A stretch of DNA of 64,000 bases from a virus (taxonomy: Duplodnaviria; Caudoviricetes): positions 39,767 through 103,766 of the IMG/VR virus record IMGVR_UViG_3300030433_001901. One strand, 5' to 3'. The position numbers were made by a program, and so were the translations under genes. The notes beneath the pieces were generated by a model. That model was not told where the DNA came from. It did not search any database and was given only the letters and a program-made list of their open reading frames with translations. This document shows positions 21,420 to 46,512 of this stretch, in pieces; positions within the stretch are counted from its first letter, which is position 1; each line of letters starts with the position of its first letter.

Positions 21420-23108
21420 TCACCTAATATCTAACCCTTTCAATAATGAATCCCATGATGCTTCGTGATTATCTTCACTTAGATTCATTGCTCCTATATC
21501 CGCCATTTCACTTGCCATATCGGGATTATCAAATACAAATTCTTCTTCTGCTTCTTCAACAATCTTTTTTGCATCGGGATTACCTTGCTTCGCGGCTTGG
21601 TCAATAGCCTTTGCTTGTGCCGGAGTATAACCCATTTCCATTAAAGCCGCTTCAACAGCCTTTCCTGTTTTACCACTAAACTTACCAGCGGCAGTCATAC
21701 CTTCCGTTCCTACACCACCTTGCAACATGGCTTGCATTGCATCTTCGTAATTAGCGAATGGGGTTTTTTGGTGTTGAGCATACACTTTATCTAACCCACC
21801 CGCGACTCTATCACCTGCGGTTGCACCTAATTTCATACCAGCGTCGCCAGCAAACCTTTGTCCAAATGTTGGTTCAGTCGCCGTAGCGGTTTCCGGTTCA
21901 ACCTTCATTGGTTGCCCCGCGTCTTGTGGTGGTGTTCCTGTTTCGGGTCCTTCTCTATTTTCATTTATGTATTCTTCAACGGATTGACCGGAGCGTGGGA
22001 ATTGCGGTGTTGTTCCTGTTTGCGGCTCGTTGAATACAAATTCTTCTTCTTCTTCCTTCGGCACTATATCAGTATCAGCCGCTCGCTCCGCTTCGGGTGT
22101 TGGTGCTTTCGGCATTGCTGGTGGCTCCGGTTCTTTTTCCGGCACGACATTAGAAGGCGCGTATGCCGCTCCTTCTCGTTCTGCTTGATTCCTTGCTCGT
22201 CGCTCATCACCGCGTCGCTTCATACCAGCGAAGAAACCTTCTTTTGGTTGTTCGCGTCTTGCACCTATGTCTTTGATTTCTTGTCGCATAGCGTCTTGAG
22301 CAGTCATAGTTGGGTTGCCTTCACTATCGGTTGGGATATTGATGTTGTAGTCGCGAGCAAGTTGTTGATTGATGGCTCCACGCGCTCTATCCATGTTTTC
22401 ATCAAAGCCTTGACTACCCGGAACATTTCTGCGTTCTGCGTCGTCAACTTGTCGCTGTCCGCGACCAAGACCAGTTTCAAGTGCATTTCTTCGTGCTTCA
22501 TCTTCGCTCCTTGCGCGGCTATCTCTAAATGATTGCATAGCGGCTTGTGGGGCATGTCGTAAGTCGCTAATTCCACGACCAACCTTACCCATGAAATTAC
22601 CCATGCGTTGTCGCATACCTCCTTCTTTAGAAGTGTCGGCGGCTCTTGCGGCTCTTCGGTCCTTCATTCCTTGAAAGATATTCTTACCCGCTTGCATAGC
22701 GGCTTGGCCGTAAAAACCAGCACCCGCTAAATCTCCAACTTTGGTGCTACCACCACGGACTGCTTCACCTGCTTGCGCAGAACGCATAGCGCGGTTTGCT
22801 TGCTTCACCGCTCTTGGGTTTGGTGCGACAGCAGTTCCCGCCGCCGGAACAGCAGGTCTAAATTGTTCATTAGGCATACCGAATATCGGTTGTTGTGGAA
22901 GATTCTTCCGAATGATGTCGGGGTGAGAGTTGTCGCGCTCCGCGACAGCCTTGATGAGAGGTTCCCAACTGTTGTCTTGGACATCAAACATAACATAGTT
23001 CATGTCCGCGACGGTGCCGCCTTTTGCAAAAATAAATTCCATAGTCCCTAAGTCGCGACCGTGTTCCAGCATACTACTATTCCATTCTATTTCCCATGTT
23101 TCAACCAT
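21420..23108 (-). CDS. Low-complexity putative internal virion protein with two EEEFVF motifs
   Basis: Start ATG 23108 after GGAGGTG; Ala/Gly/Gln/Arg-rich; ends SWDSLLKGLDIR. Confidence 0.65.
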   Translation of the reverse strand: MVETWEIEWNSSMLEHGRDLGTMEFIFAKGGTVADMNYVMFDVQDNSWEPLIKAVAERDNSHPDIIRKNLPQQPIFGMPNEQFRPAVPAAGTAVAPNPRAVKQANRAMRSAQAGEAVRGGSTKVGDLAGAGFYGQAAMQAGKNIFQGMKDRRAARAADTSKEGGMRQRMGNFMGKVGRGISDLRHAPQAAMQSFRDSRARSEDEARRNALETGLGRGQRQVDDAERRNVPGSQGFDENMDRARGAINQQLARDYNINIPTDSEGNPTMTAQDAMRQEIKDIGARREQPKEGFFAGMKRRGDERRARNQAEREGAAYAPSNVVPEKEPEPPAMPKAPTPEAERAADTDIVPKEEEEEFVFNEPQTGTTPQFPRSGQSVEEYINENREGPETGTPPQDAGQPMKVEPETATATEPTFGQRFAGDAGMKLGATAGDRVAGGLDKVYAQHQKTPFANYEDAMQAMLQGGVGTEGMTAAGKFSGKTGKAVEAALMEMGYTPAQAKAIDQAAKQGNPDAKKIVEEAEEEFVFDNPDMASEMADIGAMNLSEDNHEASWDSLLKGLDIR

Positions 23109-24873
23109 TGATTGCACCTCCGCAAGACCTCTTGATAGCGCGAACCACATCGTGGGTAGTGTTAAAGGATTTCGCTATAACCCCCCAATCACCAAGCGAC
23201 ATAGCAATCGCGCGAACATCAATACTTGACATGCCAACATCTTGACCCAATTTCTGCATATCAAAATTATCCATAGGGTCATATTTCACTAACAAAGAGC
23301 CACCTGCATCATGCATTTGCACGCGCTCCATGATAGTCGCGATGATACCCATTGGGTCGTCATCGGAGAATTGAAAACTTGATGGGTCAAAGTAAGGATT
23401 GAATGATGGATTGATTTGTGGTTGAACTGGTGCTGGCGGTAGTGGCTCTTGTGTTGACAGCGCGGGTGGTGGTTCGCTCATAGGCATATCCGATACAATA
23501 GGTTGAGGTGGTAATACATCAGCAGTTGAACCACCGCTCAAATGTTCGGGGAATGATTCGTATATGTGTTTCATATCACTTGCGAAATTACCTCTCATCG
23601 CGTGTCTTTCATCAACACTACCAAGCGCGTCTAAATCAACTTTCTTACCACCCTCATTCAAAGCAATTTGTCGCCAACCATTTACTATACTTGGTGGCGG
23701 TGAACCAAATAAAGAATACTCGGCTGGCTCAACACCTAACTCTTGCGCTGTTTTCATCATTGCTAAAATTTCAACAGCCTTAGCGTTTCTTCCTCTATCT
23801 CCACCTTCAACCTCTCTTGCTATATGGCTTCGGTGATTAGCAAACATGTTATGCACATCTTCATCACTATTTATTCTTAGAACATTACGCATGTTGCGAA
23901 CTATCTTATTGACATTAGTTTCAGCACCTTCCGAGCCGCGCCCATATAACAATTGATTGATTGGTGCGCGAGCCATTGAGCGCGCGGTTGGTTGGTCATA
24001 GCCCATTTCTATTAATTGATTCATAACTTTCTTTGACATATTACCTTCTGTTGAAGGAACAAAGAAATCGGGAGGTAATATAGATACTATATCCATCGGA
24101 CTATACTTACCATAAGCGGCAGTTTGTGAATGTAAATCTTTGTAATGAGAAGGATATAATGTATTATCTCTATGAGTTGGAGGTCTGTCTTTTGAAGTAT
24201 AACGATGCGTTATACCTTGTGTTAATTGTTGTGGTTCAAGCACATTTTGTTTAGCACCAAGGACGCTTTCAACACCCATCTGTTCTGCTATATTACGGAA
24301 CTCTTTTTCAATATGAAAAGCCGCTGATTCAAGATGTTGTCCAAGTTGTTTATGTTGTTCATTTCGCGGGTGATTATTAATGACTTTACCATCTTTAGTT
24401 CTTGTTGCTCTCTTAGATGTTGGAACGCGGCGAGAAACATGACCTCCATAATGATTATTTTTATAATCGGGGTGCAATTGACCGTTCTCATCAAACTTCA
24501 TCGGTAAAACATTGAAATCATCATTGTGTTCGCGCTTGATTTTATTGAAGTCTTTTGTCGCATTATTGAATACAGTTTTTGCTACTCTCAACGCCGATGC
24601 TTCCGAAGCGGGTTTTCTTCTAATTCCGTTTTCATCTTTGTAGCCTTGCTCCATAAGTTCGCGTGCAAAAATACCAGCGGCTATTTCTATTGGGAATTTA
24701 CCGACTAAACCTTTACCTTCAAGTTCTTTGAACGGCTTTCCTGTTTTACTATTGATGTGAAAGTGTGATATATTTTCATGGTCGGAATCGGGAGGCGGAA
24801 ATGACATTGGGTGCATCATACCGTTCTCGTCCATATACCAAACTCCTTGGCCTTTCAAGATAATATCGCTCAA
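23101..24873 (-). CDS. Hypothetical (putative internal virion) protein
   Basis: 590 aa; begins MSDIILK/G; Pro-rich linker; HTH-like C-terminus. Confidence 0.6.
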   Translation of the reverse strand: MSDIILKGQGVWYMDENGMMHPMSFPPPDSDHENISHFHINSKTGKPFKELEGKGLVGKFPIEIAAGIFARELMEQGYKDENGIRRKPASEASALRVAKTVFNNATKDFNKIKREHNDDFNVLPMKFDENGQLHPDYKNNHYGGHVSRRVPTSKRATRTKDGKVINNHPRNEQHKQLGQHLESAAFHIEKEFRNIAEQMGVESVLGAKQNVLEPQQLTQGITHRYTSKDRPPTHRDNTLYPSHYKDLHSQTAAYGKYSPMDIVSILPPDFFVPSTEGNMSKKVMNQLIEMGYDQPTARSMARAPINQLLYGRGSEGAETNVNKIVRNMRNVLRINSDEDVHNMFANHRSHIAREVEGGDRGRNAKAVEILAMMKTAQELGVEPAEYSLFGSPPPSIVNGWRQIALNEGGKKVDLDALGSVDERHAMRGNFASDMKHIYESFPEHLSGGSTADVLPPQPIVSDMPMSEPPPALSTQEPLPPAPVQPQINPSFNPYFDPSSFQFSDDDPMGIIATIMERVQMHDAGGSLLVKYDPMDNFDMQKLGQDVGMSSIDVRAIAMSLGDWGVIAKSFNTTHDVVRAIKRSCGGAING

Positions 24874-26824: not shown

Positions 26825-26862
26825 AGCAAAGACCAAGTAGTGGTAGCAAAAGAGTCTTTCCC

Positions 26863-27171: not shown

Positions 27172-27345
27172 AGCACCTATAACCCAACTTAAGTCCTTTG
27201 ATGACATCTGTGGGCCGGAGAAAACCAAAATTAAGAAGCAACCAAGTGTCAAAGCAATAAGTTGAACCATAATCATATCAACAATAACAGACTTACGCAA
27301 GTTAGTCATATCACTAATAGTGTTGTAAATAGAGCCAATATCCAT
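27112..27345 (-). CDS. Small two-TM membrane protein (holin-like topology)
   Basis: Two hydrophobic helices and a basic C-terminus; ATG 27345 after GGAGG. Confidence 0.65.
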   Translation of the reverse strand: MDIGSIYNTISDMTNLRKSVIVDMIMVQLIALTLGCFLILVFSGPQMSSKDLSWVIGALFLSFSASGIVYRRLGQQG

Positions 27346-27346
27346 A

Positions 27347-27928
27347 TTATCTTCCTCCTGTTGTGACACCGCGAAGGAATGAACCTATACCACCGCCAAC
27401 ATTTTGCATCAATCCGGGGTCGGCCATAGCATCATTCAACATATTTTGCATCAAACTTTGATTTGCGAGGTTAACCATTTGCTGAAACTCCATAGATTTT
27501 TGTTGAACATTGTTTGACGCGTTGTTTAGTAATTGAGTTTGCGACATGGTTACGCTATCAACAGTCGGCATTCCTTGAACTCCGCTAAAATCAAACTTAT
27601 ATCCATCTCCGTCTTCAACTAAACGCGCGTCTTTAAGCAAAGTATTCATTGATACTGCGACTAAACTACTCAAAAGTGATACAAGCATATTCATATTGGA
27701 ACCGTTGTTATCGGATAACCACTTATCTATCATTGGATTTGTTGTTATCATCGCGGATAATATCTCCATCTCGCTCGGAGGTGCTTGATATTGGAATCCA
27801 TACTGTTGTTGACCCCATTGCTGTTGTCCTTGTGCGGCAACTTGTTGTTGTCCGTTAGGTAATCCAAGATTCAAAGCACCATTTTGTTGCTGGTTTTGCT
27901 GATTATTGTTGTTAGACCACCACGCCAT
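27347..27928 (-). CDS. Asn/Gln-rich protein with amphipathic termini
   Basis: MAWWS followed by an N/Q tract; C-terminal GLMQNVGGGIGSFLRG. Confidence 0.65.
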   Translation of the reverse strand: MAWWSNNNNQQNQQQNGALNLGLPNGQQQVAAQGQQQWGQQQYGFQYQAPPSEMEILSAMITTNPMIDKWLSDNNGSNMNMLVSLLSSLVAVSMNTLLKDARLVEDGDGYKFDFSGVQGMPTVDSVTMSQTQLLNNASNNVQQKSMEFQQMVNLANQSLMQNMLNDAMADPGLMQNVGGGIGSFLRGVTTGGR

Positions 27929-27937
27929 GATACCACC

Positions 27938-28822: not shown

Positions 28823-28826
28823 TTTA

Positions 28827-30344: not shown

Positions 30345-30440
30345 ACCATAAATAAGTCTATTGATTCACCTTTTTATCAATATTATAATATTATTATTAT
30401 AACAATATATTAATTATCATTCTAATAATAAAATGATATT
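30345..30440 (-). promoter_or_regulatory. AT-rich tract and probable promoter of the GTPase cassette
   Basis: About 70 nt of near-pure A/T, then TTATTTATG upstream of the GGAGG RBS. Confidence 0.45.
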
Positions 30441-33400
30441 ATTGAGAATTTTCGTCGCCACCTATTGTTCTCGGACCTACACCGTATTGGTAAAATTGTA
30501 ATGGCTGTTGCGGCGGTGGTGGGAAGAAGGGGTAAGGTGCAACTTGAGGTGCGGGTTGCACAGGAGGTGTCGCGGCCTGTCCCTCATTTACAGCATGTTC
30601 GTATTTGAGCATATCACTATGGTTTTGAAGTGATAATGTCGGGTGTGACAAGTATGATAACATAAATGATGTAGTAATTTGTTTTGCTAACTCCGGCGGT
30701 AAAGCATTATTAGCGTGTGCTTGTCTAAGTTCTTCGTAGTTAGCAAAACCATCTTCTTTATCCTCTTCGCCTTTAATTATGTTATTTATCTCATTACGAT
30801 GATGCCAATTTGGTGCTTCGTGATAATTACCAACCTTCTTCATGACATCATACATTTGTTGGTCTGCTGGTGTTATTAAAGAGTTTCTTGCTCGCGTAAG
30901 TATCGCTGATGCCATAGAAGGAACAAACTTGCTCTCTATCTCGCCGTCTTCATCTCTTTTTAATTCTTCATATCCAATAGGAAACTCGCCTTCGTCGCTA
31001 TGTTTTGCATTAGCCATCACGCTGTCTTTGAATTCCGACGGTTTAATTTCTTGAACTATATTACCTCTTCCACCAGTAATCTGTGCTGTTTTCTTTAAGT
31101 TAAATTTCTTCTCAAAGTGGCTATAATCATCATACCCAAGTAGTTTCGCGGCTTCATCATGCATTAGTTCATACAATGCGCTATCTTCACGCGTCAAGTC
31201 TTGGAAATTGTTTTGGTTGATACTTTGCGGTATCTTTGGAAATTCAAGAGGATTATTAATTTCACGCATAAATACATTCATTGCGCTCATTATAGCGTAT
31301 TTTTGCCACATTTCGCGTATAGCCATATTCAAACCCATCGTATATCTGCTATTCAACGGGCGTTGTTTTCCATCTGCGTTAGCCGATGTCAAAAGATTGT
31401 TGACTTTACTCTTGGTAATATCACTATCAGCAATTGCTTTCATAGTTTCATCACTATAAGTCAAATGATGGTCTTCCATTTCACCAACCATTTCTTTTTC
31501 ACCATAATTTCTAAGCAAATCGTTTAACGCAGAACTCGTCAAGTTTGTTGTCTTACGACGAGTCATAGGTCTTTTTATCTTATCAAATACATCTACTATA
31601 CTTTGCATCGCTTCGGGGCTATAATCATTGACTCTTTCGCGTCTTTTTATTACACCTTGCGCTTTTCTATTACCTGCAAATAATCTTTTCAAATCTTCGT
31701 CTGTTATATCGCTTGGTGCATGTGTCGCACCCGGCTCAAAGACACCTTCGCGGATTTCTTTCATAGTCAACATACGACCATGCGCGGGGTAAAGTGATTG
31801 AAAATCTCCAAATGTCATAGGTGAATTACCACCAAACACATCTGCGGCTGTTAAAGAAATGTTGCCTTTTTCATCAACAGGTAATCTTCTCCTTTGAGCG
31901 ATTAATTTATTTCTATCTTTTCTTTTCATCGCTTTTCCAGCCATAACATCGCTTAGGTCGTCAACAAAAGGTGCTTCCGCCATTTCTTGCAATTCATGTA
32001 TTTTCTCAAGCAAATGGTGTTCTGTGTTGCCATGAACATCACCATTGATAAACGCTGGGTGTGCTTTTATTTCATTAACTAAATCGTTAATTTGTTGTTT
32101 AACATCTATCGGCACTTGTTCGTAAATTTCTTCATCATCACTTGTTAGTCCTTTGAATTCACTTCGGAACTGCGGAGCATCACCTTGACCCGCTAACGCC
32201 ATTCTCGCTAATTTATTAATATGATTTTCAAGCATAAGTTTGTTGTGATTGTTTGTCGCGGTGTTATGAACAGTTGGTAATTTTATCTCCGGTTTAGGCT
32301 TTGTTGGTTGCGAAGTAAGTTTTTCCGCTAATCTCTTTTGTCGTATCTCTTCTGTTCTCGCAGGGTCAATTTGTTCCGTCGGCACACCTTGGAACTCCGG
32401 GGCATCTTCGTCAATTTCTATTTCCGGCAACTCTTTCTTCTTGCGCGCTTCGCGTAATTCTTCAAGTGTTCTAAATTTACCACTATCAGTAGCGTCCCCA
32501 TACATCTGCCATAGAGGTTTTGTTGGTGCTAACATACCCGCTGGCATTTCATGACCACCAATTGAGGCTTGCGCGCTTTGCAACATTATTGAGTTAAGGA
32601 AATCAAACTTCGCGTCAACAGCACCATTGTGTGTATAGTGGTGATTTTTACCATCTATCTTATTTCCTTCTTTGTCTGTATAACCTTCATACAAGTGGGC
32701 TTCATCATCGGGGTCGCGAATACCGCTACCACCACATTCGGAGCAGATACCATTACATAATTGTCCACCCCTAACATAATCCGCGCTATGATTACAAGAA
32801 GGACAAGCGAGTTGTTCATGCTCACCATCTTCCATATCATCAGCCATCGCGTGTCCCGCGAATGAAGCACTATTACGAGGTCGCAAATTATCCGCGATGT
32901 ATCTATCAAACCTCGGACTTCCCATTGGTTCATCTCTTAATTCCGGTATATGATGGCGCAAGTATGTTTTTGCTTCATCTCTTGTCACAAATCTATGTCC
33001 ATGACATGTTCCGCACAATGTCGGTGCGTGTTGTCGCCAGTTGCTTATCAATTGGTCTGCGCTGGCGAAATCACCACGCGCAATTGCTTCTTCTGCTTCT
33101 CTTGTGAAGTGTGAATTCAACTCTCTTCGCGCGGCTTCTTCTTCGGATAGCAACCCCAACTCATCTTCGTTTGAGTCGTGGTGATGATGTCTTAACTCCG
33201 ACATGTTGACATCGGCTAATTCTTCTAATGATAAATTAGCGATTGCTTCATTTATCGCTTCATCATCAAAACTATCATCTGCGTTTTCTGCGTCGTCCAT
33301 CATCGCGTTGGCTTGCGCAATTTGTTCTTCGCTAAGTGGGAATCCATTTTTCATACGATGAGCAATTAATTGCATCTCGGAACTAATACGCGGCATCGCT

Positions 33401-36400: not shown

Positions 36401-37050
36401 AAAGATGTATCAGTCATAGGACCTGCGACTCTTACTCGCGATTGTGGCTTTCGTCTTTTGATATTAGGTTGAATTTGACTTCCGGCTAATTTAGCGTCTG
36501 CTGTAATCGTAGGTGCTATTGGGTGCATGTATTTCTCAAATAAGTTATGAATCCCCTTAATTTCATTCTCTTGCGCAAATCGTTTTTTATTGTATGGTTC
36601 GGCGATAAATGCCGATATGTCGGGTCGTATGCCACCCATACCAGCCATAGCATCTTCCAACGACCCATTTATCTCTTCGTCTTTATCGCGCGCTTCCTGT
36701 AATTCGGGGTGTTTAGCAATCAATTGCTTTAGGTGCAACATAACTGGCGCGTTAATGAGAGGTTCTTCGCCTAAACTCATATTGTCATCTTCGCGCTCAT
36801 CGTGAATACTTCTTGGAGTATCTTTTTCTGTTAAGCCGCTATAACCCAACGCATTAGCGAGTAAATGGTTGTTCGCGTATATTATAGCATCAAAGAATGA
36901 AAAAATACCAAATTTGTTGTCTTTATCTAAGTATTTTTTCTCGGCCTCGTTCATGTATTTTTGCAACGCGTCAAAGCCTTTTTGGGTTGGTCCGCCCTTC
37001 TTTTCACCCTTCTTTTCATCGGACTTGATGATGCGGACAAAAGAACCCAT
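30439..37050 (-). CDS. 2203-aa protein with DnaJ-type Zn-finger repeats; putative internal virion protein
   Basis: Begins MGSFVRIIK/S; CLACH, CGTCHG, CPSC and CSECGGSG; Pro-rich C-terminus. Confidence 0.65.
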   Translation of the reverse strand: MGSFVRIIKSDEKKGEKKGGPTQKGFDALQKYMNEAEKKYLDKDNKFGIFSFFDAIIYANNHLLANALGYSGLTEKDTPRSIHDEREDDNMSLGEEPLINAPVMLHLKQLIAKHPELQEARDKDEEINGSLEDAMAGMGGIRPDISAFIAEPYNKKRFAQENEIKGIHNLFEKYMHPIAPTITADAKLAGSQIQPNIKRRKPQSRVRVAGPMTDTSFEDEMNRLVQEQKENMEFKDDKRFKYGGEKQQRAAEDYYDKFFSQTDIDRGPKAPASVSVRRPQTQETRALETKHKDLMREFNLDKKAAFAKIQDDFNNFMISLTGNKAFGTSGRAGKFGAEIEVGRTPDAITPSMNELGRSLGIGMQAPNIPDFIGKRWREEADPFSMNLREEITEQLSDETSNQGFHPTLLTAMGEEGLLSTLYGDPNVQVVDPGFIGGDQEEKETRAKEARRSEKGGAETESALMTPEDEIKVLRGKRKLTPSQKIQQLERQLNIGDIDDYDYKMQIMAMDLDGRHLLDPDAKLGGLTGDDFDVNHPLHGKNEDDLIASTDTFVDGLIGMGRIIRDLRYEAYKHSEGKMVKKGKNKKPQPLTKQDIDDKIAALKLDADNIVAFGKPKEERTKEENARYKTLDDLMNGKLSAYIPRLTSTMSYQQKMLNNLGLNPIDIINAAIKYANADMTTTGYNDAFTSLLASQMKDGTLNTYPIKRLLNYLKDVGYRRALDEEYHAPLMEQKEKFRKNHEARQIMKEEYAKTKSKKTEESDAWFDPNHEHAEDVVHDKEECLACHPDRFGNRTAKEAYARGPRIPTSRGRIRSIKSPFAHKSVVVPSLTGYSKGNKSGFLPAVAPKGSPSLAAIANHIFPNKYDIDDLLDQEKTAREEKRVRAWAKDIQKRMKREIKDAVITGNPRAANIYKKFGLSKTLENPLATGPAGMSNKELTAASFFLNNDDATDKHYEKVRSRNLLATRYNAIEDALSFMRELTEGAYGKKIKAGALAQDSYRRDTLKDMISQPLSGIEKQESVIKRNEIEKATYKKQYARYLKEQANYENLLAETKMVKYKDEDGIERERRGKFGEPAQIAIIKDMGQKIKKEHGNMLAIMKEANKKIEKAKKKIDRYKDKSNESIERANKLMLGAFIMGGEELANFVKNPEKMTEREVIENVYNKLYADSPSGEYDSIITADMNGNIGYDKTHSLSKYKDGRLGQMAGTGIRFNINNKAMPRISSEMQLIAHRMKNGFPLSEEQIAQANAMMDDAENADDSFDDEAINEAIANLSLEELADVNMSELRHHHHDSNEDELGLLSEEEAARRELNSHFTREAEEAIARGDFASADQLISNWRQHAPTLCGTCHGHRFVTRDEAKTYLRHHIPELRDEPMGSPRFDRYIADNLRPRNSASFAGHAMADDMEDGEHEQLACPSCNHSADYVRGGQLCNGICSECGGSGIRDPDDEAHLYEGYTDKEGNKIDGKNHHYTHNGAVDAKFDFLNSIMLQSAQASIGGHEMPAGMLAPTKPLWQMYGDATDSGKFRTLEELREARKKKELPEIEIDEDAPEFQGVPTEQIDPARTEEIRQKRLAEKLTSQPTKPKPEIKLPTVHNTATNNHNKLMLENHINKLARMALAGQGDAPQFRSEFKGLTSDDEEIYEQVPIDVKQQINDLVNEIKAHPAFINGDVHGNTEHHLLEKIHELQEMAEAPFVDDLSDVMAGKAMKRKDRNKLIAQRRRLPVDEKGNISLTAADVFGGNSPMTFGDFQSLYPAHGRMLTMKEIREGVFEPGATHAPSDITDEDLKRLFAGNRKAQGVIKRRERVNDYSPEAMQSIVDVFDKIKRPMTRRKTTNLTSSALNDLLRNYGEKEMVGEMEDHHLTYSDETMKAIADSDITKSKVNNLLTSANADGKQRPLNSRYTMGLNMAIREMWQKYAIMSAMNVFMREINNPLEFPKIPQSINQNNFQDLTREDSALYELMHDEAAKLLGYDDYSHFEKKFNLKKTAQITGGRGNIVQEIKPSEFKDSVMANAKHSDEGEFPIGYEELKRDEDGEIESKFVPSMASAILTRARNSLITPADQQMYDVMKKVGNYHEAPNWHHRNEINNIIKGEEDKEDGFANYEELRQAHANNALPPELAKQITTSFMLSYLSHPTLSLQNHSDMLKYEHAVNEGQAATPPVQPAPQVAPYPFFPPPPQQPLQFYQYGVGPRTIGGDENSQ

Positions 37051-37510
37051 TGTTGTATCGGATAACGACCATGCCCTTGAATATAGCGGTTGATGAAAAT
37101 TTTTGCTGGATTTTTTTTGACCCCCACGAAAAAAATATCTGTATTTCGCACGCGGTTAAGGAGGGCAAATTGGTCGCGCGCGAGCGCGACTCCGGCTAAG
37201 CAATTTGCGCCGCGAAGCGCGAGAGCCTCGCGCTACACCTATTATCACGCGCATATCGCACATTTCGCGATAAAACAGGGGCGCGATACAGCGTTTAGCG
37301 CAATTACCGCGAGGGGGTTTCCGGCGCGAGTCCCTCGCGCCTCCAACCATACGGTTGTCGCGCGGTCTTGCCTTCCCTTTCCGAGCAAGTCCGCGACAGA
37401 CCGACAACCCGATTTTTGGCTGACCCCTTATAAGGGGCGCGTTAAACCATACTGAAAAAGCACTTCCCTTGATAACAGCAAAGAGGGAAGATAATAGAAA
37501 GGTGAAAAAA
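37051..37510. other. Divergent intergenic control region (candidate origin or packaging site)
   Basis: Strand switch; A/T tracts around GACCCCC; dense CGCG; short inverted repeats. Confidence 0.5.
37424..37448 (+). promoter_or_regulatory. Palindromic TATA promoter, copy 1
   Basis: CCCCTTATAAGGGG palindrome plus CGCGTTAAACC; 23/24 identical to 58686-58709. Confidence 0.7.
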
Positions 37511-38593
37511 ATGGAAAACGAAAAGCAATGGTGTAAGGTAATGCTTACATCTTATGAAAAGAAAGATGATGAATGGTTCTCTCAAAGAGATACTAACATT
37601 AAGACCGCTAAAAATGAAGGCGGTAAGAAAACAGAAAACAACGCTACTGTAATGGTGCGTTTAGCCAAAAGAATGAACATAACAGGGCATAGTATTGTTG
37701 ACAATTACTATAACTCATCAAGTGGAGTTAATGTTAACAATCAACTTAACCAACTCAAGGAATTGAGAAAAGCGGTAATGAGAGTTCACTATGCTAACTG
37801 CAACAAAGACATGATTGTATTGGCCGGAATGATTGCTGAGCATCTATCAACTATGACAGCAACTACCAAACCTGCTGAAACTGATGATGAATTCAGTTTT
37901 AATACAGCGCAAGATGGCGTTTTGTCTGGGTTGACTGATGATGCACCAAAAGCAACAGCCACCGAAACTGATGGCTATTTACTTGATGAGTTTGATATTA
38001 ACTTCATCAATGAGAATGTTGACAGTGCTATGATTCAAGAAACAATCGGCAAACTATTCAGCACTAATGCAAACGGTAAGTTCTATCAATACGGTAGCAA
38101 ATCAATCAAGACAACTGACAGACCGGAATGGATTGAGAAAGGTGTTAAGGCTGGCAATGGTAATGTTATCTTCAACGGATTGTTTAGACAACCAATGGCC
38201 GACTTACTTCAAGTTAGAGCGAAGGCTCAATCAACATTGGCTAAGACTGAACAGAATCCTAAAGCACAATTCAAGCATTGGTTCACTGAATTAGTAGCCA
38301 ACAAAACTGCTGAAGTCAAAGCAACTATCATGAAGGTCGTATCTTATGTAATGCATCACAGTGGCCGCAACTTTTGGGCTAAGAGAATTGCTTGGGCAGT
38401 TAGTCCGGCGTTTGTTGAATCATTCAAGGAATACATTGGCTTCAATCAAGAAGTAGCAGACAGTCCTGTAATGGGTGGAACTGCGAAAGATTGGAACTGG
38501 CCGTATGAAGCAAATGATTGGGAGGCATCAGCCGCTGAATCAGTTGACTTGTCTGCTATGGGTCTTGACCTTAACGACTTGAAGAAACTTTGA
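37511..38593 (+). CDS. First early protein, function unknown
   Basis: ATG 37511 after GGTGA; own promoter and terminator; contains ETDDEFSFN. Confidence 0.7.
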   Translation: MENEKQWCKVMLTSYEKKDDEWFSQRDTNIKTAKNEGGKKTENNATVMVRLAKRMNITGHSIVDNYYNSSSGVNVNNQLNQLKELRKAVMRVHYANCNKDMIVLAGMIAEHLSTMTATTKPAETDDEFSFNTAQDGVLSGLTDDAPKATATETDGYLLDEFDINFINENVDSAMIQETIGKLFSTNANGKFYQYGSKSIKTTDRPEWIEKGVKAGNGNVIFNGLFRQPMADLLQVRAKAQSTLAKTEQNPKAQFKHWFTELVANKTAEVKATIMKVVSYVMHHSGRNFWAKRIAWAVSPAFVESFKEYIGFNQEVADSPVMGGTAKDWNWPYEANDWEASAAESVDLSAMGLDLNDLKKL

Positions 38594-39080: not shown

Positions 39081-39341
39081 ATGAAGAACGAACAATTGAA
39101 TAAGATACTGAAAGATATACTAAGCGAGTTTGGCTTTGAGCCTAACGCTTTTGCTATGGGTATGCTTGATGGTGAAAGCCACAGACGCGCTAAGATACAA
39201 ATGCTTGGTCGCATCACTAATCATATCAAAAGCATCGCTGACTATGATTACCAAATGTTTTGTATAATTAGAGATGATATTGAAATGGCATACGATGAAA
39301 TGATAAGGAAAAAAGAGGTTGAAGATAATGATAGAAGTTGA
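39081..39341 (+). CDS. Hypothetical protein
   Basis: 86 aa after an AT-rich tract and an AGGA RBS. Confidence 0.6.
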   Translation: MKNEQLNKILKDILSEFGFEPNAFAMGMLDGESHRRAKIQMLGRITNHIKSIADYDYQMFCIIRDDIEMAYDEMIRKKEVEDNDRS

Positions 39342-40911
39342 AGAAGTTGAAGAAGAATTTGTATTTACTAACTCACATGATATGTGGCTTAACCAAGAGG
39401 CTGACGAAGATGAAATGATATTCACATTCGCACCGGATATTGATGTGGCTAAATCACTACCTGCTAACAGGACAGGTGAACAACTACAAGAAGGAGCGCG
39501 ACCGTGGCAACAGGAAGGTTATGCTTCATGGCTTGGCTTAGATGGCAAGCGCATGGGAACATGGGTTGCTACCGGAGCAGGTAAGACGCGTCTTGCTATT
39601 ACTGTCGCTCACAATTGGCTACACGAACACGAACCTCACCCCGTTATCATATTCTATGTGCCGACTAAAGCATTACTTAATCAAACGCGAACTGTATTCC
39701 GTATGTGGGGTCTAACTGTTGGTCGTATTGGTGGTGGATACAATGAACGCTCACCAAACAAAGATGTGTATATTACTACTTACTTATCAGCCAAGAAGAT
39801 ACCTAACATCAAACACTTACAGAACAGAAAGAAACTTCTCATCTTAGATGAATGCCACATGGCGGGTGGAGAAGGTGCGCTCAAACACTTTCGCAACTTT
39901 CAAGGTGATGCTTGTCTATTACTTAGCGCAACACCGCACAGAAGTGATGGTGTTTGTGTCATGTGTGAGTTGAATACCACACCAAAGAACCATGTCTGTC
40001 AAGGCGAGGATTGTGTTGCAGGTATTCATTGTCGCGTCAAACTAATTGAAGGTATCAAACAATCAAGGACAGACGATGACGAATTAGATTACACATTCCA
40101 CCTTATCAAAATCAAGATGAAAGATGCTGAACAGATTGAATACAATGAGTTGACTGAACAGATTAGCAAACTGTATTGGAAGTGCTACAAGGCGGCTGAT
40201 GAAACAGCGGGTGCTAACAAACACAATCTATTTGACAGACGCAACTTCAAAGTTGGAGGGTTGTTGAATGAGGTTGTATCTTATTCACAGGCAGGTAAGC
40301 CTATGACTATACTACACATGTATCAGTATCTATGCAACAAGCGCAAGAGATTGATGAATGACATGGAGAATAGATTTACTGCCGCGCAATACATACTCAA
40401 TGAAAACATTGGTAAGAAAGGATTACTATTTCACGAAACCATCTTTGGTATTGAAAGACTCAATGGTATGTGTAAGAACTTGGGTATTCACCCACACATA
40501 TATCACAGCGGTCTTTCCACATTACCTGCTGATGTCTATGAAACTTACCCCGAACTAAACAACGCGGGATTCAAACGCAGACTACAACAATATAGCGAAG
40601 ATGCTACTAAGGAATTGAAGAGATGGGAACGCTCATCATCGGACATTCTATTATCATGTAAGTCATTGAAGGTTGGTTTCAATGCACCGGACATTGACTA
40701 CTTAGTGATGATGACAGGCACAAACAATGTGCGCTCTCGCATTCAAACTATTGGTCGTGTGTTTCGCGGTAGCAAGCACAAGGACATCTACATGTTTGTG
40801 TATGACAATGAAGAAGGAGGCGACATGAAATGCTTTTACAAATTGATAAACGAAACAGGCATCAATGAAGAGCCGGAGAAAATACGAGTCCACATTTACG
40901 ATAGTGAATGA
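39319..40911 (+). CDS. Superfamily 2 helicase (XPB/Rad25-like)
   Basis: RPWQ, ATGAGKT, DECH, SAT, GFNAPD, QTIGRVFR. Confidence 0.9.
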   Translation: MKIMIEVEEVEEEFVFTNSHDMWLNQEADEDEMIFTFAPDIDVAKSLPANRTGEQLQEGARPWQQEGYASWLGLDGKRMGTWVATGAGKTRLAITVAHNWLHEHEPHPVIIFYVPTKALLNQTRTVFRMWGLTVGRIGGGYNERSPNKDVYITTYLSAKKIPNIKHLQNRKKLLILDECHMAGGEGALKHFRNFQGDACLLLSATPHRSDGVCVMCELNTTPKNHVCQGEDCVAGIHCRVKLIEGIKQSRTDDDELDYTFHLIKIKMKDAEQIEYNELTEQISKLYWKCYKAADETAGANKHNLFDRRNFKVGGLLNEVVSYSQAGKPMTILHMYQYLCNKRKRLMNDMENRFTAAQYILNENIGKKGLLFHETIFGIERLNGMCKNLGIHPHIYHSGLSTLPADVYETYPELNNAGFKRRLQQYSEDATKELKRWERSSSDILLSCKSLKVGFNAPDIDYLVMMTGTNNVRSRIQTIGRVFRGSKHKDIYMFVYDNEEGGDMKCFYKLINETGINEEPEKIRVHIYDSE

Positions 40912-40949
40912 TTGACAAAAAGAAAATAAAAAATAAACGAGGAATATAT

Positions 40950-41578: not shown

Positions 41579-41946
41579 TGACATTCATGCCGGATTGGGA
41601 TACTATTGAGAACAGCATTGTTGATAACTTAGACAACACATCAAGGAGAGATGAGCCAAGAGTATATGTTCTGTCTGTAATCAAAACATTTGATAGGATA
41701 GATACTACAATACACGCGACTAAAGAATCAGCGATTCAAACATTGAGGTATGAACTATACACTTCTCTTATGAAAAGATACCATCGCTTCGCGAAAGTAA
41801 TGGCTAAAGTAAATCCCGATAAAGAGAATCAAACCCTCAAACAACTATCACTTGATGTAGTTGAGGGGAGAGTCCAACATGAAATCGTTGATTATCTAAT
41901 ACAAGCGCAAGTTGTTAACGACAAGAAAGGTGAGAAGAATGACTAA
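41578..41946 (+). CDS. Hypothetical protein
   Basis: TAATG-coupled ORF. Confidence 0.6.
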   Translation: MTFMPDWDTIENSIVDNLDNTSRRDEPRVYVLSVIKTFDRIDTTIHATKESAIQTLRYELYTSLMKRYHRFAKVMAKVNPDKENQTLKQLSLDVVEGRVQHEIVDYLIQAQVVNDKKGEKND

Positions 41947-42145
41947 GAAAATATCATTGAATGAACAGATTGAAATTTGGGCTAAAGAAAGAGAGGCGAA
42001 CCCTATCCGATGCAAATGCGGAAGCACAGAACATGAATCAGTAATGAGTCGCGGCCTTGCAGGTATGACTGTTATTACATCATGCCCTCTTGAAATAGAA
42101 GCGGCGCACAAAGCGTTTATGAAATCAGCAGGTGAGGAAGAATGA
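41939..42145 (+). CDS. Small Cys-containing hypothetical protein
   Basis: ATG 41939 after GGTGA; CKCG. Confidence 0.55.
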   Translation: MTKKISLNEQIEIWAKEREANPIRCKCGSTEHESVMSRGLAGMTVITSCPLEIEAAHKAFMKSAGEEE

Positions 42146-42408
42146 CATTTGAATTCAAAGGAAAGAGAAAAGCACACGCAACAAGAATCATATCATATCT
42201 TGATGACATCTATGAGGTCGGTCAATCTTTCAATGCTCGCGATGCTATCTATCAAATGACACACAACCACACACCAAAGACAAAGAGCGGAACGCGCTAC
42301 ACAAGAAAGAACATACCACAACAGCGACAGTTATCTATGTGGTTGAGAATCCACCCGCGATTTCAACCCGTTGGTTATCAAACAGGACTATGGAGGCGAG
42401 TTGAATGA
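42142..42408 (+). CDS. Hypothetical protein (possible winged helix)
   Basis: ATGA-coupled 88-aa ORF. Confidence 0.55.
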   Translation: MTFEFKGKRKAHATRIISYLDDIYEVGQSFNARDAIYQMTHNHTPKTKSGTRYTRKNIPQQRQLSMWLRIHPRFQPVGYQTGLWRRVE

Positions 42409-42698
42409 AGATAGATATACTATTTGACAAACAAAAGCGCGAAGATGGATTTCTCAACTTTGTTATACACCCTAACTACATTACTGAAGTTGATAGATAC
42501 ACAGCCAACACTTACAGAAAAGATGTAAGAGATACTGCGGCGCGTCTATACTTCATCACTAACTTACTACCCAACTTGAAAGGGCGCGACTTGTTATTGA
42601 TTGCCGAAGGTGATTACACACTTGAGATTGATGAGGACAGCGATGAGAATTACTACATCGCCACACTAACAACAGGAGTCAAGGGGGAAGAAGAATGA
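42405..42698 (+). CDS. Hypothetical protein
   Basis: ATGA-coupled ORF. Confidence 0.6.
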   Translation: MKIDILFDKQKREDGFLNFVIHPNYITEVDRYTANTYRKDVRDTAARLYFITNLLPNLKGRDLLLIAEGDYTLEIDEDSDENYYIATLTTGVKGEEE

Positions 42699-42931
42699 GT
42701 TGGCCTCGCACTTTGAAAGACTATCGTAAGTTTGAACGAGTTATTGCTCGCGTTGATGGTGTCGCTATAACCATACCATTGATACCACCACACTACAAAT
42801 TCTTTGGAGTTGATTCAAAAAGCAACGGTATCTATCGCAGATACAATCAAGACGAGAGAATGAAAGCGCATCAGCACAAGTTTGTATCAATTCCTTACAG
42901 CGCACTACACCGCTACGAGGTGATACAATGA
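42695..42931 (+). CDS. Hypothetical protein
   Basis: ATGA-coupled ORF. Confidence 0.55.
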   Translation: MSWPRTLKDYRKFERVIARVDGVAITIPLIPPHYKFFGVDSKSNGIYRRYNQDERMKAHQHKFVSIPYSALHRYEVIQ

Positions 42932-43077
42932 GCGAGATACTATTCATTCGCATTGAATGTGAAGAACACATCATTGAAGAATACATTGATGAGTCAAACA
43001 TGAGAACAAACCTGCGCGTATGGTCAAGCGCAATACAAAAGTTAGACCAACAATATAATATGGAGGAAAAAATATGA
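42928..43077 (+). CDS. 49-aa hypothetical protein (not in ORF track)
   Basis: MSEILFIRIEC...MEEKI*; ATGA overlaps at both ends; GAGGTGA RBS. Confidence 0.55.
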   Translation: MSEILFIRIECEEHIIEEYIDESNMRTNLRVWSSAIQKLDQQYNMEEKI

Positions 43078-43754
43078 AACAGAAATATATGAGAAGACCA
43101 AATGAAAGAGCATACGAGTTTGCTATACGCATCATGAAAGGTGCGACAACACATGGAGGAAACTTAGAACACCTAACGGCGAAGCAAGTCCACAAACTTG
43201 TTGACCAAAGAGGTTCGCGCAAGATGGATTTGAGGCAAGTGCAATCAAGTTTATACTACGCGGCTAAGAAAACAGGTAAGATTACCATACACAAAGTGAA
43301 AGGTAAGCGCAAGACATACACATACAATCATACTCTTGGTGGTATGTTTGGTAAGCCTAAATTTACACAAGATGATAGTTTCTTTGACGAAGAAGATATG
43401 TCAGCACCGGACATAATGTATGAGCCATCTAAGATGAAGAAAATAAATGAGATGAAGGAAATGAATAAGAAACTCATCGCAGAACACAAAAGCAACTTCA
43501 TCAAGTATGATAAGAAAGAACCACGCGATGCTCTTGTGTCCACAGTCAAGCATGAGTTCACAGCAGAACAGTTGCTTGAATCACTTGAAGCATTGAACCA
43601 AGACTTGCATGACAATGTTATCGTTGCTATCTTTGCCGCGCTTGGTAAAGATAACTACTTACCATTCCATCATGACTTTACCAAACCACAACCGCGCAAG
43701 ACCGCGTTGATGGATTGGCACTTTGAACACGGCAACTTGGTGGTGAAGGAATGA
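43074..43754 (+). CDS. Putative DNA-binding (wHTH-like) protein
   Basis: LTAKQVHKLV..LRQVQSSLYY..GKITIHK..RKTY. Confidence 0.55.
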   Translation: MKQKYMRRPNERAYEFAIRIMKGATTHGGNLEHLTAKQVHKLVDQRGSRKMDLRQVQSSLYYAAKKTGKITIHKVKGKRKTYTYNHTLGGMFGKPKFTQDDSFFDEEDMSAPDIMYEPSKMKKINEMKEMNKKLIAEHKSNFIKYDKKEPRDALVSTVKHEFTAEQLLESLEALNQDLHDNVIVAIFAALGKDNYLPFHHDFTKPQPRKTALMDWHFEHGNLVVKE

Positions 43755-43918
43755 AATGCACAATCTATTGCGCTGTCAAAGGACAAGAATCATACAAAGT
43801 AAAGGTCGTTGACAATGATGAGTTGGCTAAGTCTTTCTGTCTTAGATACAACAGTCCAGCATCACAACTACATGACCCCGATGTATCTTACTATTTTGTA
43901 AGAGGTGAAGAAGAATGA
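43751..43918 (+). CDS. 55-aa hypothetical protein (not in ORF track)
   Basis: MKCTIYC...RGEEE*; ATGA overlaps at both ends. Confidence 0.55.
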   Translation: MKCTIYCAVKGQESYKVKVVDNDELAKSFCLRYNSPASQLHDPDVSYYFVRGEEE

Positions 43919-44373
43919 CATTTAATGAAAAAGAATTCCACGCGCTAATTGATGATGACCACACAGTAGTTAACATGACTACCAACGATGCAGGTGATGG
44001 TAATTATGTCATAGTGATGAACGCTTTTGTTAGACCAACAAGCGCACTACGAGATAACTACCTCAACCCTCATAGAAACATGGGAAGAATACCTGTTCAG
44101 TATGTCCGCGCTTGTCCTAAGTGTGATACTGAATGGAAGCCTCTCACCTATGACATCAAGAAAGGTAAGATGCAATCAACGCATTATCATTGTTGCTCTA
44201 ACGCTATTTGTTCACAGACTTACAACAAGTTTGTGGCGCGCGGTGAGAAAGTTGATATACTACACAGCCAACAAGATACTATGACGCGCGGTGAAGAAGA
44301 TGAAGAATTTGTTTTCATCAACGAAAACGAAAGCGAAGAATTTGAATTCATATTTGTGGGAGGCGAGCAGTAA
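43915..44373 (+). CDS. Zn-ribbon protein with C-terminal EEFVF/EEFEF motifs
   Basis: CPKC...CCSNAIC; ends EEDEEFVFINENESEEFEFIF. Confidence 0.65.
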   Translation: MTFNEKEFHALIDDDHTVVNMTTNDAGDGNYVIVMNAFVRPTSALRDNYLNPHRNMGRIPVQYVRACPKCDTEWKPLTYDIKKGKMQSTHYHCCSNAICSQTYNKFVARGEKVDILHSQQDTMTRGEEDEEFVFINENESEEFEFIFVGGEQ

Positions 44374-44463
44374 TGCGTTCTCCCTATGAGATAGAACAAA
44401 CCACCAATGAAACATTGGTTATAACACAGTCCATTGGACAAAAAATAATAGGAGGAAAAAGAA

Positions 44464-46512
44464 ATGAATAAAAATAACCCCCAAGAAGCCACGCGCACCG
44501 TAGTAATCGGTGTCGCTCAAGATGAAAAGAACAACATGCAATTGGTAGCAAGCCCAGCATGGGAAGGTGTCAAATACATTCCCAATGATTGTATTGCTGA
44601 TACCATAGAACACGGTGAGCAAACTGTATTCTTGTTGCAAGACGCTAATGTGAACAGCGTAAATATTCGCGTTGCGGATAATTACAACTACGACACTAAC
44701 GGCGATGCTGTGCTACAAGACATTGCTGATATGTGGATTGAGTTTGGTGAAACAAACGCTGTTGATGAAGAACCGGAGATGGAGTTTGTCTTCAATGATG
44801 CATCGGAAGAAACATCATCGGAAGAAGAATTCACATTCAATGAACCAACAACACAAGAAGCAGACTACGATGACAGCACACCTAACTTTGGTGATGCGCT
44901 TGGTGTTGAGTTAGCAGACCATGTTCTTGCCGAGAATGAAACAGCAGATGATGTCGCATTGAAACAAGTCAAGACTAAATTGACAGCGGCACAGCGCGCT
45001 AACAAAGCAAGACAAGAAAGGTATGCTGAATCAAAAGTAATCAAGGACAACATGAAGTCGGACATCAGCAGGGCTATGGCAGACGGCAAGCGACACGAAG
45101 ACTTTGGTGCATGGAACTTCCGCACCAAGACTTACGACATGGTTGCTCGCACAGTTGACCCAATCACAGGCAATACTGAATACCACGAAGTGCATTCGGA
45201 GAAAGGCGATACAAGAGTCCGCGCTATCTTCAATCCAACACTTGCTACTCAAGACAACCCACTTGGTCATTGTTTGAACCGCGCGATTGGCCCGAACTTT
45301 GTTCCGGTTGAACACCCCGATGTGTTTATCCCAATCATTCAAACTGTTCGCGGTATCAATGAAGCCAATGGTTGTGTCTATGAATTGAAGGAAGGCGACA
45401 AGGAAGCAACACTTGTGTCCGGTCAAGAACTAATTACTTATGACGCATTCTCTTTCAACAAGGGTGCGCGTGCTATGATTAACCTTGACCTAACTGACTA
45501 CTCAACTAAGACTCGCAATGAATCTGCTAAGAGCCTCGGCAACTTTGGCTATGTCAATCTATCAGCAAACAGAATCAGCGACGCGCTTGTTGAAGAAGAA
45601 GGTGGACATCGTATTGGTGTATCAATCATCAATGCTCACGATGGTAAGTCTGCTCTTCAAGCATTCATGACTGTTCTCCGCACTTACTGTGGTAATCTTG
45701 CCGCACGCGGTGGTGTTCAAGCATTGCTAATGGCTGGCGACAAGACTAAGATACGACACATGGAAGGTGTAGTTTCACAGTTTGATGGTGAAAGATTTGC
45801 TTCTCAACTTGGACAAGCACTTCTTGAATCGCGTAAGAACTTGGTTGCTATGCACATCTTAAGACACATACCTGTTGAGGCTAACGCGTTTGATAAGATA
45901 CTAACTTCATTCTCTTCACATGGTCTTATCGCACAACCGTCAATCACAATCAGCGCGGCTGACATTGATACATTCCCGAAGGATAAGAACGGAAACATTG
46001 TTATCACTAAGGCTGTAATGGATTCCGATGCCGCTAAGGTTGGACACGGCCATGCTTGGAATGCTATGAACAAAGGTTGGATTGACCCCGACCAAGACTT
46101 CGTTGCTATGGGTAAGACAGAATTGGATAAGCAATCTGTTGGAAGTGTATTCCATGCCGCGCAATGTTTGACTGGTGTTATTACTCACAACCCTATCTTT
46201 GACGATGGTAAGAGGACACTAACAGGACAGAAGCATGGTATTGAAACGCTGATGAAGAAGTCGGACAAAGCCGCGAACATGTTTGAAGATATTGCTATGG
46301 CCGCTGTCAATGCTTACTCTAAACATACAGGCAAACCCGTTGATGATTTAGAAGCAATGGGTCAATGGCTTGCTGACAACCCCGACCAATTCAAGATACC
46401 TTACAGTAAGACTAAGGCTGGTAAGAAAGTTATGACACCTATCAATGAGATACCAACCTTCCAAGAAACATGGAAGCCAACTATCAAACTTGTCAAGGTT
46501 GATAACAAGTAA
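44464..46512 (+). CDS. DUF932-like (TIGR03299-type) protein with acidic N-terminal extension
   Basis: IINAHDGKSAL...LRTYCGNL...KIRH signature. Confidence 0.7.
   Translation: MNKNNPQEATRTVVIGVAQDEKNNMQLVASPAWEGVKYIPNDCIADTIEHGEQTVFLLQDANVNSVNIRVADNYNYDTNGDAVLQDIADMWIEFGETNAVDEEPEMEFVFNDASEETSSEEEFTFNEPTTQEADYDDSTPNFGDALGVELADHVLAENETADDVALKQVKTKLTAAQRANKARQERYAESKVIKDNMKSDISRAMADGKRHEDFGAWNFRTKTYDMVARTVDPITGNTEYHEVHSEKGDTRVRAIFNPTLATQDNPLGHCLNRAIGPNFVPVEHPDVFIPIIQTVRGINEANGCVYELKEGDKEATLVSGQELITYDAFSFNKGARAMINLDLTDYSTKTRNESAKSLGNFGYVNLSANRISDALVEEEGGHRIGVSIINAHDGKSALQAFMTVLRTYCGNLAARGGVQALLMAGDKTKIRHMEGVVSQFDGERFASQLGQALLESRKNLVAMHILRHIPVEANAFDKILTSFSSHGLIAQPSITISAADIDTFPKDKNGNIVITKAVMDSDAAKVGHGHAWNAMNKGWIDPDQDFVAMGKTELDKQSVGSVFHAAQCLTGVITHNPIFDDGKRTLTGQKHGIETLMKKSDKAANMFEDIAMAAVNAYSKHTGKPVDDLEAMGQWLADNPDQFKIPYSKTKAGKKVMTPINEIPTFQETWKPTIKLVKVDNK

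Follow-up and report, generated by a model that had tools for sequence, protein, structure and literature searches.

A genome-private acidic-hydrophobic peptide recurring on unrelated proteins of magrovirus-like viruses: a candidate multivalent docking tag

A few model phages have conserved docking peptides shared by several proteins, namely, those of the clamp clients of T4, the acidic tails of T7, and the tips of single-stranded DNA-binding proteins (SSB). The acidic C-termini of SSB (DDDIPF) and of T7 gp2.5 and gp4 compete for the same basic sites on their partners. In the targeting peptides of encapsulins, which are found on flexible ends and sometimes in several copies, hydrophobic residues alternate (L-x-I-G-S-L); dockerins are ~70-residue folded domains, and amyloid signaling motifs are uncharged and rich in Gly, Asn, and Gln. 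In T4 and RB69, the peptides contacting the gp45 clamp are the gp43 C-terminus EKASLDFLFG, the ligase loop EPEGLDFLFD, and a peptide of gp33 (PMC6212786). Here, we describe a stretch of 64,000 nucleotides (hereinafter, the window), positions 39,767 to 103,766 of the IMG/VR record IMGVR_UViG_3300030433_001901, which belongs to the ~100-kb genome of a tailed virus, organized in two divergent arms. Five unrelated proteins encoded on both arms carry copies of one acidic F-x-F peptide (the tag), and in related genomes a different peptide takes its place on the same set of proteins.

The window contains 9-10 copies of the tag. On the minus strand, a largely disordered protein of 576 residues (21420-23150), encoded directly upstream of the large terminase, has two copies about 167 residues apart, EEEEEFVFNE at residues 366-375 (22026-22055) and EAEEEFVFDN at residues 533-542 (21525-21554). 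The other four carriers are encoded on the plus strand. The first gene of that arm encodes a 374-residue protein of no known family (37469-38593) with one copy, ETDDEFSFNT (37877-37906), in an interdomain linker. The SF2 helicase (39319-40911; ResIII/DEAD and Helicase_C, by matches to Pfam and PHROGs) has two copies in its N-terminal tail, EVEEEFVFTN (39343-39372) and the degenerate EDEMIFTFAP (39406-39435), both inside the first 45 residues. The 152-residue putative zinc-ribbon protein (43915-44373) is Cys-rich and folded in its N-domain (residues 1-108), and its C-terminal tail (110-152) is disordered, with two adjacent copies, EEDEEFVFIN (44293-44322) and NESEEFEFIF (44326-44355). Finally, the DUF932-like protein of 682 residues (44464-46512), named so due to a partial match to PF06067 (29.3 bits at the cut-off of 23, E = 9.4e-7, residues 386-481), consists of an N-terminal beta domain (10-95), a disordered linker (99-159), and the DUF932 region; the linker has two copies, EPEMEFVFND (44770-44799) and SSEEEFTFNE (44815-44844). 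Immediately 3' of these variable copies lies the element DDSTPNFG (44869-44892), conserved in the alignment of DUF932-like proteins, where D136, D137, and P140 are invariant and F142 nearly so; this element may represent a related but fixed form of the tag. The giant protein of 2203 residues (30439-37050), encoded by the first gene of the minus-strand arm, is untagged in the window.

The frequency of the tag was compared with 300 within-protein shuffles of a greedily selected window proteome (80 open reading frames, 20,978 residues). The pattern [ED][ED]F.F is found 7 times at 0.62 expected, with none of the 300 shuffles reaching 7, and [ED][ED]F[VTS]F, 6 times at 0.11 expected, although these figures overstate the significance, as the pattern was picked after seeing the data; the tests in related genomes, given below, are free of this problem. 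Plain F.F is not enriched in the same proteome (35 observed, 30.8 expected in shuffles). The tag is not a DNA repeat, since both Phe codons (TTT and TTC) and three Val codons (GTA, GTT, and GTC) are used in different copies. AlphaFold2 (AF2) models the tagged regions as disordered: the predicted local distance difference test (pLDDT) is about 27-35 over residues 99-159 of the DUF932-like protein, and in the 152-residue protein it decreases from about 85 in the N-domain to 33-41 in the tail. In these monomer models of both proteins the tags stay disordered, and no docking in cis is seen. Several claims of an earlier note on this DNA hold: one motif occurs in five unrelated proteins on both arms, with all ten peptides quoted there located in their open reading frames; it varies in codons; and it lies in linkers or at termini.

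A search with the DUF932-like protein yielded 31 relatives of 39-97% identity, on marine contigs of up to 104 kb. Among them, the literal EEFxF is kept in the 97%-identical relative alone. The aligned linker (residues ~100-135) is hypervariable, and all 31 orthologues have in it 2-9 tandem copies of their own short acidic-hydrophobic motif (MTLDFG, ALSFG, IVFG, DPFA, NPFAGL, DDFG, LVFDM, MTLSL, PLTDDD, and others), followed by the nearly invariant DDSTPNFG; even orthologues that are 93% identical can differ in the tag. We compared 15 loci around the DUF932-like gene. In 12 non-redundant lineages (the window and 11 related loci), the private linker motif of a genome reappears on other, non-homologous proteins of the same genome, with forms as different as EEFVFN, NTMPDL, IDWG, LDIGDITID, FDMT, DDMxIDFG, MFDLTL, and PLTEED. 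For example, [IV]D[WF]G is present twice in each of the DUF932-like protein, the helicase, the tail of the 152-residue protein, and the 374-residue protein of lineage L003, whereas L010 has PLT[ED]ED nine times in the DUF932-like protein, five times in the 152-residue protein, three times in the helicase, and twice in a 359-residue protein without a BLAST match to the window. Similarly, FDM is found in four proteins of L005; LD[IV]G or ITID, at the helicase N-terminus, in the 152-residue protein tail, and in the DUF932-like protein of L004 (the complete genome G002); and MFDLTL, at the helicase C-terminus and in the latter two places in L009. In four further lineages the motif is shared by the DUF932-like protein and the 152-residue protein tail (NTMPDL in L002, DDMxIDFG in L007, [VI]SF[TS] in L008, and F[VI]EEDMP in L015), while L012 has NPFAGL in the DUF932-like protein and a fragment of a probable orthologue of the 152-residue protein, and L014 has PMDF in the DUF932-like protein and at the helicase C-terminus. 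Orthologues of the 374-residue protein carry AAVDFGD twice (L003), AGIDFSMT (L005), or DDEFEFGE (L001), and the tails of the orthologues of the 152-residue protein have 2-6 copies of the lineage tag.

This co-variation was also assessed without any regular expression: each DUF932-like linker was split into 4-mers, and these were counted in the remaining proteins of every locus. Linkers share 67 4-mers with proteins of their own genomes, while 36,705 derangements of the pairing yield 6.1 on average and 16 at most. As the compared proteins are not homologous, shared protein ancestry cannot explain this sharing. Moreover, the tag can move within a carrier: the helicase bears it at the N-terminus in four lineages (the window, L003, L004, and L005) and at the C-terminus in three others (L009, L010, and L014). 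The number of copies ranges from 1 to 9 across carriers and lineages. In a genome-wide scan of G002, its tag is confined to the orthologues of the helicase, the 152-residue, DUF932-like, and 576-residue proteins, and to the orthologue of the giant protein, which has three tandem copies; the window giant has no tag at the place matching these copies and no internal repeats. A single copy of DEDFVFDN in a 556-residue tail-region protein of G001 was treated as a chance occurrence, its counterpart being absent in G002. The earlier note would take a lack of conservation in orthologues as refuting its claim, and, read literally, this is what is observed, since EEFxF itself is private to the window lineage. 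However, literal conservation is the wrong measure for a motif whose sequence changes in concert while its presence, place, and copy number are conserved. Disordered or terminal placement, and gain, loss, and relocation with the set of carriers kept, are traits of short linear motifs, and relocation, varying copy number, and placement in termini and linkers are typical of docking motifs.

The co-variation extends to the other arm. Orthologues of the 576-residue protein, whose gene is about 23 kb away on the opposite arm, were compared in 80 terminase-anchored loci. Seven contigs span the DUF932-like locus as well, and in each of them the orthologue carries its own genome's tag, with slight variants such as MYDLTL for MFDLTL and EEEDVP for EEDMP. 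The orthologues from G001 and G002 are likewise tagged with the forms of their genomes, in G002 with two copies. Within the family, two sites about 150 residues apart share a lineage-specific heptad (6/7 identical) in 19 of the 52 distinct orthologues, compared to ~0.2 in shuffles, and these paired heptads have more than 20 forms. Anchoring of the two sites on conserved flanking words failed, the flanks being too variable. Pairs of genomes with 90-98% identical 590-residue neighbors of this protein have related tags (EEEFVFN and EKTKFTF; EEMYDLT and EETFDV), and the tag shifts gradually together with the variable module. In addition, the C-terminus of the 576-residue protein (21420-21470) ends in ...SWDSLLKGLDIR, also given as ...EASWDSLLKGLDIR, which fits W-x-x-L-L-K; its orthologues end in SWDALLKGLNIR and GWNLLMKQLAIR. 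The protein thus carries two different tags, the acidic F-x-F and the C-terminal W-x-x-L-L-K; the latter is the one pointer to the reading, in the earlier note, of the carriers as early proteins and a putative injected virion protein.

The DNA underlying the copies tells about the level of selection and their origin. Tandem copies inside one gene are often identical in DNA, which points to slippage, while copies in different genes of one genome differ in synonymous codons. The two distant sites of the 576-residue protein, where codons differ at 39 of the 103 identical residues, behave in a bimodal way: in some lineages, 5/7-6/7 codons are synonymously different under an identical peptide, and in others the sites share sharply bounded DNA-identical patches of 21-38 nucleotides, which indicate recent copying between the sites. 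Since synonymous codons often differ between copies, selection operates at the peptide level; the uniformity of the tag is made in part by DNA copying and then held by selection on the peptide.

We consider it somewhat more probable than the contrary (about 0.55) that the tag is a multivalent short linear docking tag, private to each genome, with one common co-evolving partner (the reader). Its core would be a hydrophobic-x-hydrophobic triplet, mostly with a small or turn residue after it, within an acidic disordered stretch, present in one to nine copies on loose ends and linkers of a fixed set of carriers flanking the point where the arms diverge: the SF2 helicase, the Cys-rich 152-residue protein, the DUF932-like, 374-residue, and 576-residue proteins, and, in G002, also the giant. 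One partner would read every copy of a genome, its binding site co-evolving with the tag, and several copies in a row would provide avidity. New forms would arise by tandem slippage within a gene, patches of 20-40 nucleotides would occasionally be copied between sites, and afterward purifying selection on the peptide would keep the forms uniform. As the tag differs between viruses with nearly identical structural genes, we infer that the reader, if a single one exists and binds the tag, would be encoded by the virus. The earlier note proposed a docking motif recruiting proteins to a common host or viral hub; a motif selected at the protein level and shared by both arms is strongly supported, while the common hub would follow only by inference.

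Several points weigh against this docking interpretation. The DNA-identical patches of 21-38 nucleotides mean that a part of the uniformity comes from DNA copying rather than from independent selection at each site. The diversity of the tag spans proline-rich and nearly non-aromatic forms (PLTEED, EEDVP, NTMPDL), and a single fixed binding mode would need to change greatly to read all of them. The models and the comparisons of close genomes yielded no reader, and all the evidence is comparative and comes from uncultured viruses.

Among other explanations, an unlikely one, but still the best of these rivals, is clamp binding, with the tag acting like a PIP box or the T4 LDFLF peptide and tethering the helicase and accessory proteins to DNA via the virus's own sliding-clamp-like protein. 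The latter (252 residues, 62477-63235, plus strand) is encoded just before PolB and weakly matches phrog_947 "DNA polymerase processivity factor" (E = 6.8e-4); its rate of divergence is close to that of the DUF932-like protein, with 51-76% identity to the window, and a trimeric ring would suit multivalent tags. The tag shares with the T4/RB69 clamp clients a short acidic-hydrophobic peptide on flexible ends and loops of several unrelated proteins, which in T4 serve one viral hub, and the forms MTLDFGD, EEPMDFGD, and DMNIDFG resemble EPEGLDFLFD and EKASLDFLFG (PMC6212786). However, the polymerase and the rest of the replisome, the usual clients, carry no tag: across eight lineages whose tag is known, it is absent from every plus-strand open reading frame within 10 kb of the gene for a 336-residue protein, and this stretch encodes the RFC-like, 450-residue, 336-residue, and clamp-like proteins, PolB, and nucleases. 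Conversely, the carriers include the mostly disordered terminase-adjacent protein and, in one lineage, the giant protein of 2310 residues. Tandem arrays of up to nine copies at a 7-residue spacing and a sequence private to each close lineage are also unlike the known clamp clients, and the window form EEF[VTS]F[ND], without Gln, the required spacing, or LDFLF, fits neither Qxx[ILM]xx[FY][FY] nor (S/T)LDFLF. Quite improbable is a cargo-loading signal that docks the carriers to a head component for packaging and injection. The 576-residue carrier adjoins the terminase and ends in W-x-x-L-L-K, the giant is tagged in G002, and the alternating hydrophobic LDIGDI resembles the encapsulin L-x-I-G-S-L; like the tag, the targeting peptides of encapsulins and of the T4 capsid, systems with HK97-fold shells, are short, sit on flexible ends of unrelated proteins, and are sometimes repeated. 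Nevertheless, the proteins that would receive the cargo hardly vary with the tag. Between the window and G005 or G006, which have clearly different tags, the major capsid protein is 99.5% (G005) and 98.7% (G006) identical, the portal, 98.5-99.6%, and the terminase, 99-100%; all three are 90-98% identical between the window and G002. Furthermore, most carriers lie outside the head module, at the start of the replication arm, and a different motif is a better candidate for head targeting.

The same comparison bears on the possibility, even less probable in our opinion, that the tag mimics a host motif or binds a host hub (a basic cleft of the SSB/RPA type, partners of ribosomal stalk tails, or PCNA), so that tag differences would reflect different Poseidoniales hosts. 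The acidic-aromatic composition does resemble SSB C-termini (DDDIPF), the T7 gp2.5 and gp4 tails, and acidic stalk tails, with an acidic run preceding an essential Phe in SSB and T7, where the tail occurs on two replication proteins, one of them a helicase; in the DUF932-like protein, the conserved DDSTPNFG is reminiscent of an SSB tip placed internally. However, SSB and T7 tails are strictly C-terminal, bind via the free carboxylate of the terminal Phe, and are single-copy and widely conserved, whereas the tags are repeated, hypervariable, and internal, N-terminal, or followed by trailing residues (...FEFIFVGGEQ). Tags differ between viruses with 99-100% identical terminases and even between the 93%-identical DUF932-like orthologues, while conserved host hubs would not drive such turnover; hence a hub such as PCNA, SSB, RNA polymerase, or the chaperonin fits these diverging tags poorly. 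Slightly less credible still is homotypic binding, with the copies acting as stickers or as amyloid signaling motifs of the RHIM or BASS kind that co-assemble their carriers. It would account for the matching copies, as matching partner sequences are the rule for amyloid signaling pairs; many forms are phi-x-phi-G tetrads (LDIG, IDFG, VQFG, IVFG) similar to the RHIM core, and matching, system-specific elements on several proteins of a genome are common to the tags, dockerin-cohesin systems, and amyloid motif pairs (NLR/effector, RHIM, BASS). On the other hand, the tags are five to nine residues long and modeled as disordered, with no strands formed at them by AF2, and have strongly acidic flanks and often proline (PLTEED, [YF]EEEDVP, NTMPDL), in contrast to folded dockerins and to the uncharged proline-free core expected for an amyloid motif. 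We give the least credence, and very little of it, to the absence of any peptide function, i.e., to an element of DNA or RNA or to slippage and gene conversion acting neutrally in tolerant GAA-rich linkers. The frequent DNA identity of tandem copies within a gene and the bounded identical patches between distant sites in some lineages agree with it, but in other lineages the peptide is kept despite 5/7-6/7 synonymous differences, the copies always have the same reading frame and the coding strand on both arms, the same set of proteins carries them in all lineages, and the helicase regains the tag at its opposite end.

Candidates for the reader under the docking interpretation were sought in several ways. 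Complex prediction for the neighboring 159-, 226-, and 107-residue proteins with the tail of the 152-residue protein (109-152) gave scores of 0.00 and 0.01, compared to the mark of 0.32, which speaks neither in favor of binding nor against it. The large terminase, portal, and major capsid proteins are poor candidates for a co-evolving reader, being 98-100% identical between genomes with different tags. Comparisons of close genomes (the window with G005 and G006, L010 with L015, L005 with L006, and L002 with L006) removed solely the highly conserved head and terminase proteins, and the pair L010 and L015 is uninformative, as both share the EEDMPL core. This leaves the clamp-like, 590-residue, and 429-residue proteins, other fast-evolving core proteins of unknown function, and many small proteins as possible readers. 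Searches for homologues provided few leads. Foldseek found nothing in PDB at E <= 0.001 for the models of the DUF932-like and 152-residue proteins; in a wide VIA-align search with the model of the 152-residue protein N-domain, the best Z was 4.8, with SSB chains among weak rows only. Pfam, PHROGs, and NCBIfam yielded nothing for the 576-, 374-, 590-, 429-, 2203-, 1996-, 159-, and 182-residue proteins; the 226-residue protein had no Pfam match and one marginal match in PHROGs (phrog_20408, E = 0.0094, no stretch passing alone). A sequence search of PDB returned nothing for the clamp-like protein and one chance-level row for the 182-residue protein (E = 0.33), ESM Atlas contained only viral hypothetical proteins similar to the 159-residue protein, and no functional lead turned up in the DUF932 literature.

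The tagged genes belong to a genome of a recognizable type. The minus-strand arm (1-37050) encodes the tail tube, major capsid protein, S78 prohead protease, a 1996-residue head-region protein, portal, and large terminase and, upstream of the terminase, the 576-, 590-, and 429-residue proteins, a small membrane cassette, and the 2203-residue giant. At the start of the plus-strand arm (37469-64000) are the genes for the SF2 helicase and for proteins of unknown function, followed by those for the SNF2 helicase, RFC-like AAA+ protein, clamp-like protein, and the beginning of a family-B polymerase (PolB); the related complete genome G002 (102,931 nucleotides) adds PolB, ERCC4 and PD-(D/E)XK nucleases, and a Cpn60/TCP-1 chaperonin. 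The same gene set has been described for group A magroviruses, assigned to Poseidoniales (PMC5434244). By gene content (the head module, PolB, clamp loader, clamp, SNF2 helicase, and chaperonin), the window virus would thus be group A magrovirus-like. The cumulative GC skew has its minimum at the junction of the arms (~37 kb). Comparison of the window with G002, G005, and G006 reveals mosaic rates: identity within the clade is 95-100% in the head and terminase genes and drops to 25-75% in the block from the 429-residue protein to the giant and in the first 10 kb of the plus-strand arm. For a 137-residue acidic protein (5072-5485), whose gene adjoins that of the major capsid protein, identity in these three genomes is as low as 40-46%, compared to 92-99% for the capsid protein; this head protein is hypervariable and probably exposed on the surface.

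Other short motifs were noticed in the window. About 12 proteins of the plus-strand arm end in G-G-E-E-E, G-D-E-E-E, or R-G-E-E-E (e.g., at 51889-51904, 52939-52954, and 43903-43918). We rejected this shared acidic C-terminus as a peptide motif and consider it a by-product of translational coupling, because the DNA at these gene ends, GGAGGCGAAGAAGAATGA, comprises a GGAGG ribosome-binding site, a spacer, and the ATGA overlap of the stop codon with the start of the next gene. Another C-terminal motif, F-[ND]-P-x-T-G-E-[WF]-E, ends the 107-residue family in every aligned lineage (in the window, 47566-47889, C-terminus NFNANTGGFE), the 159-residue family in L010, L015, L011, and G002 (in L002, L005, L006, and L009 this family ends in LDPFPMEVL), and a 117-residue protein of G002; it is internal in the 182-residue family (46700-47248, IFDANQGMLY), and sites in G002 are at 11502-11993 and 27226-27579. 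It may form a second docking network. The 226-residue basic protein (43074-43754), with highly conserved C-terminal 75 residues, has in its disordered middle an FFAT-like element, two Phe in an acidic tract: DSFFDEED in the window, SKFFDEN in L005, EEFFSEE in L014, and VFTFDEDDD, twice, in L003.

Two more small proteins of this arm can be tentatively characterized. The 88-residue basic protein (42142-42408; isoelectric point 10.6) looks like a small winged-helix-type DNA binder; an iterated hidden Markov model finds it in 12 of the 15 related loci at ~30% identity, with a conserved W-R-R-[IV]-[EQ] end and a varying position in the arm. The 171-residue protein (51389-51904) resembles at its start (MTFWLLDKNP, compared to MNIFVLDECP of G002) the neighboring homologue of the T4 endoV-type pyrimidine-dimer glycosylase (50421-50948) and has a weak match to phrog_624 "DNA binding protein"; it may be a diverged paralogue.

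If the tag is indeed read by a common partner, one could speculate about a private "address code," a rather unlikely scenario in which a fast co-evolving, virus-encoded pair of reader and tag would gather the first-acting proteins (the helicase, the DUF932-like, 152-residue, and 576-residue proteins, and the giant) into one complex or compartment and would diversify to keep co-infecting relatives from using or disturbing this machinery. It would be analogous to plasmid incompatibility determinants, but at the level of protein docking. While shared docking peptides of the model phages are conserved, in these closely related uncultured archaeal viruses a single peptide varies jointly on five to six unrelated proteins. 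The tag links proteins of unknown function (the DUF932-like, 152-residue, 374-residue, and 576-residue proteins and the giant) and a helicase in one candidate interaction network, and its more than 20 matched forms provide natural material for analyzing the evolution of docking specificity via slippage, patch copying, and selection. The search for genome-private peptides recurring on non-homologous proteins can serve as a rule for viral metagenomes of any kind. Such tags may insulate competing viruses from each other, provided that the reader is private and encoded by the virus.

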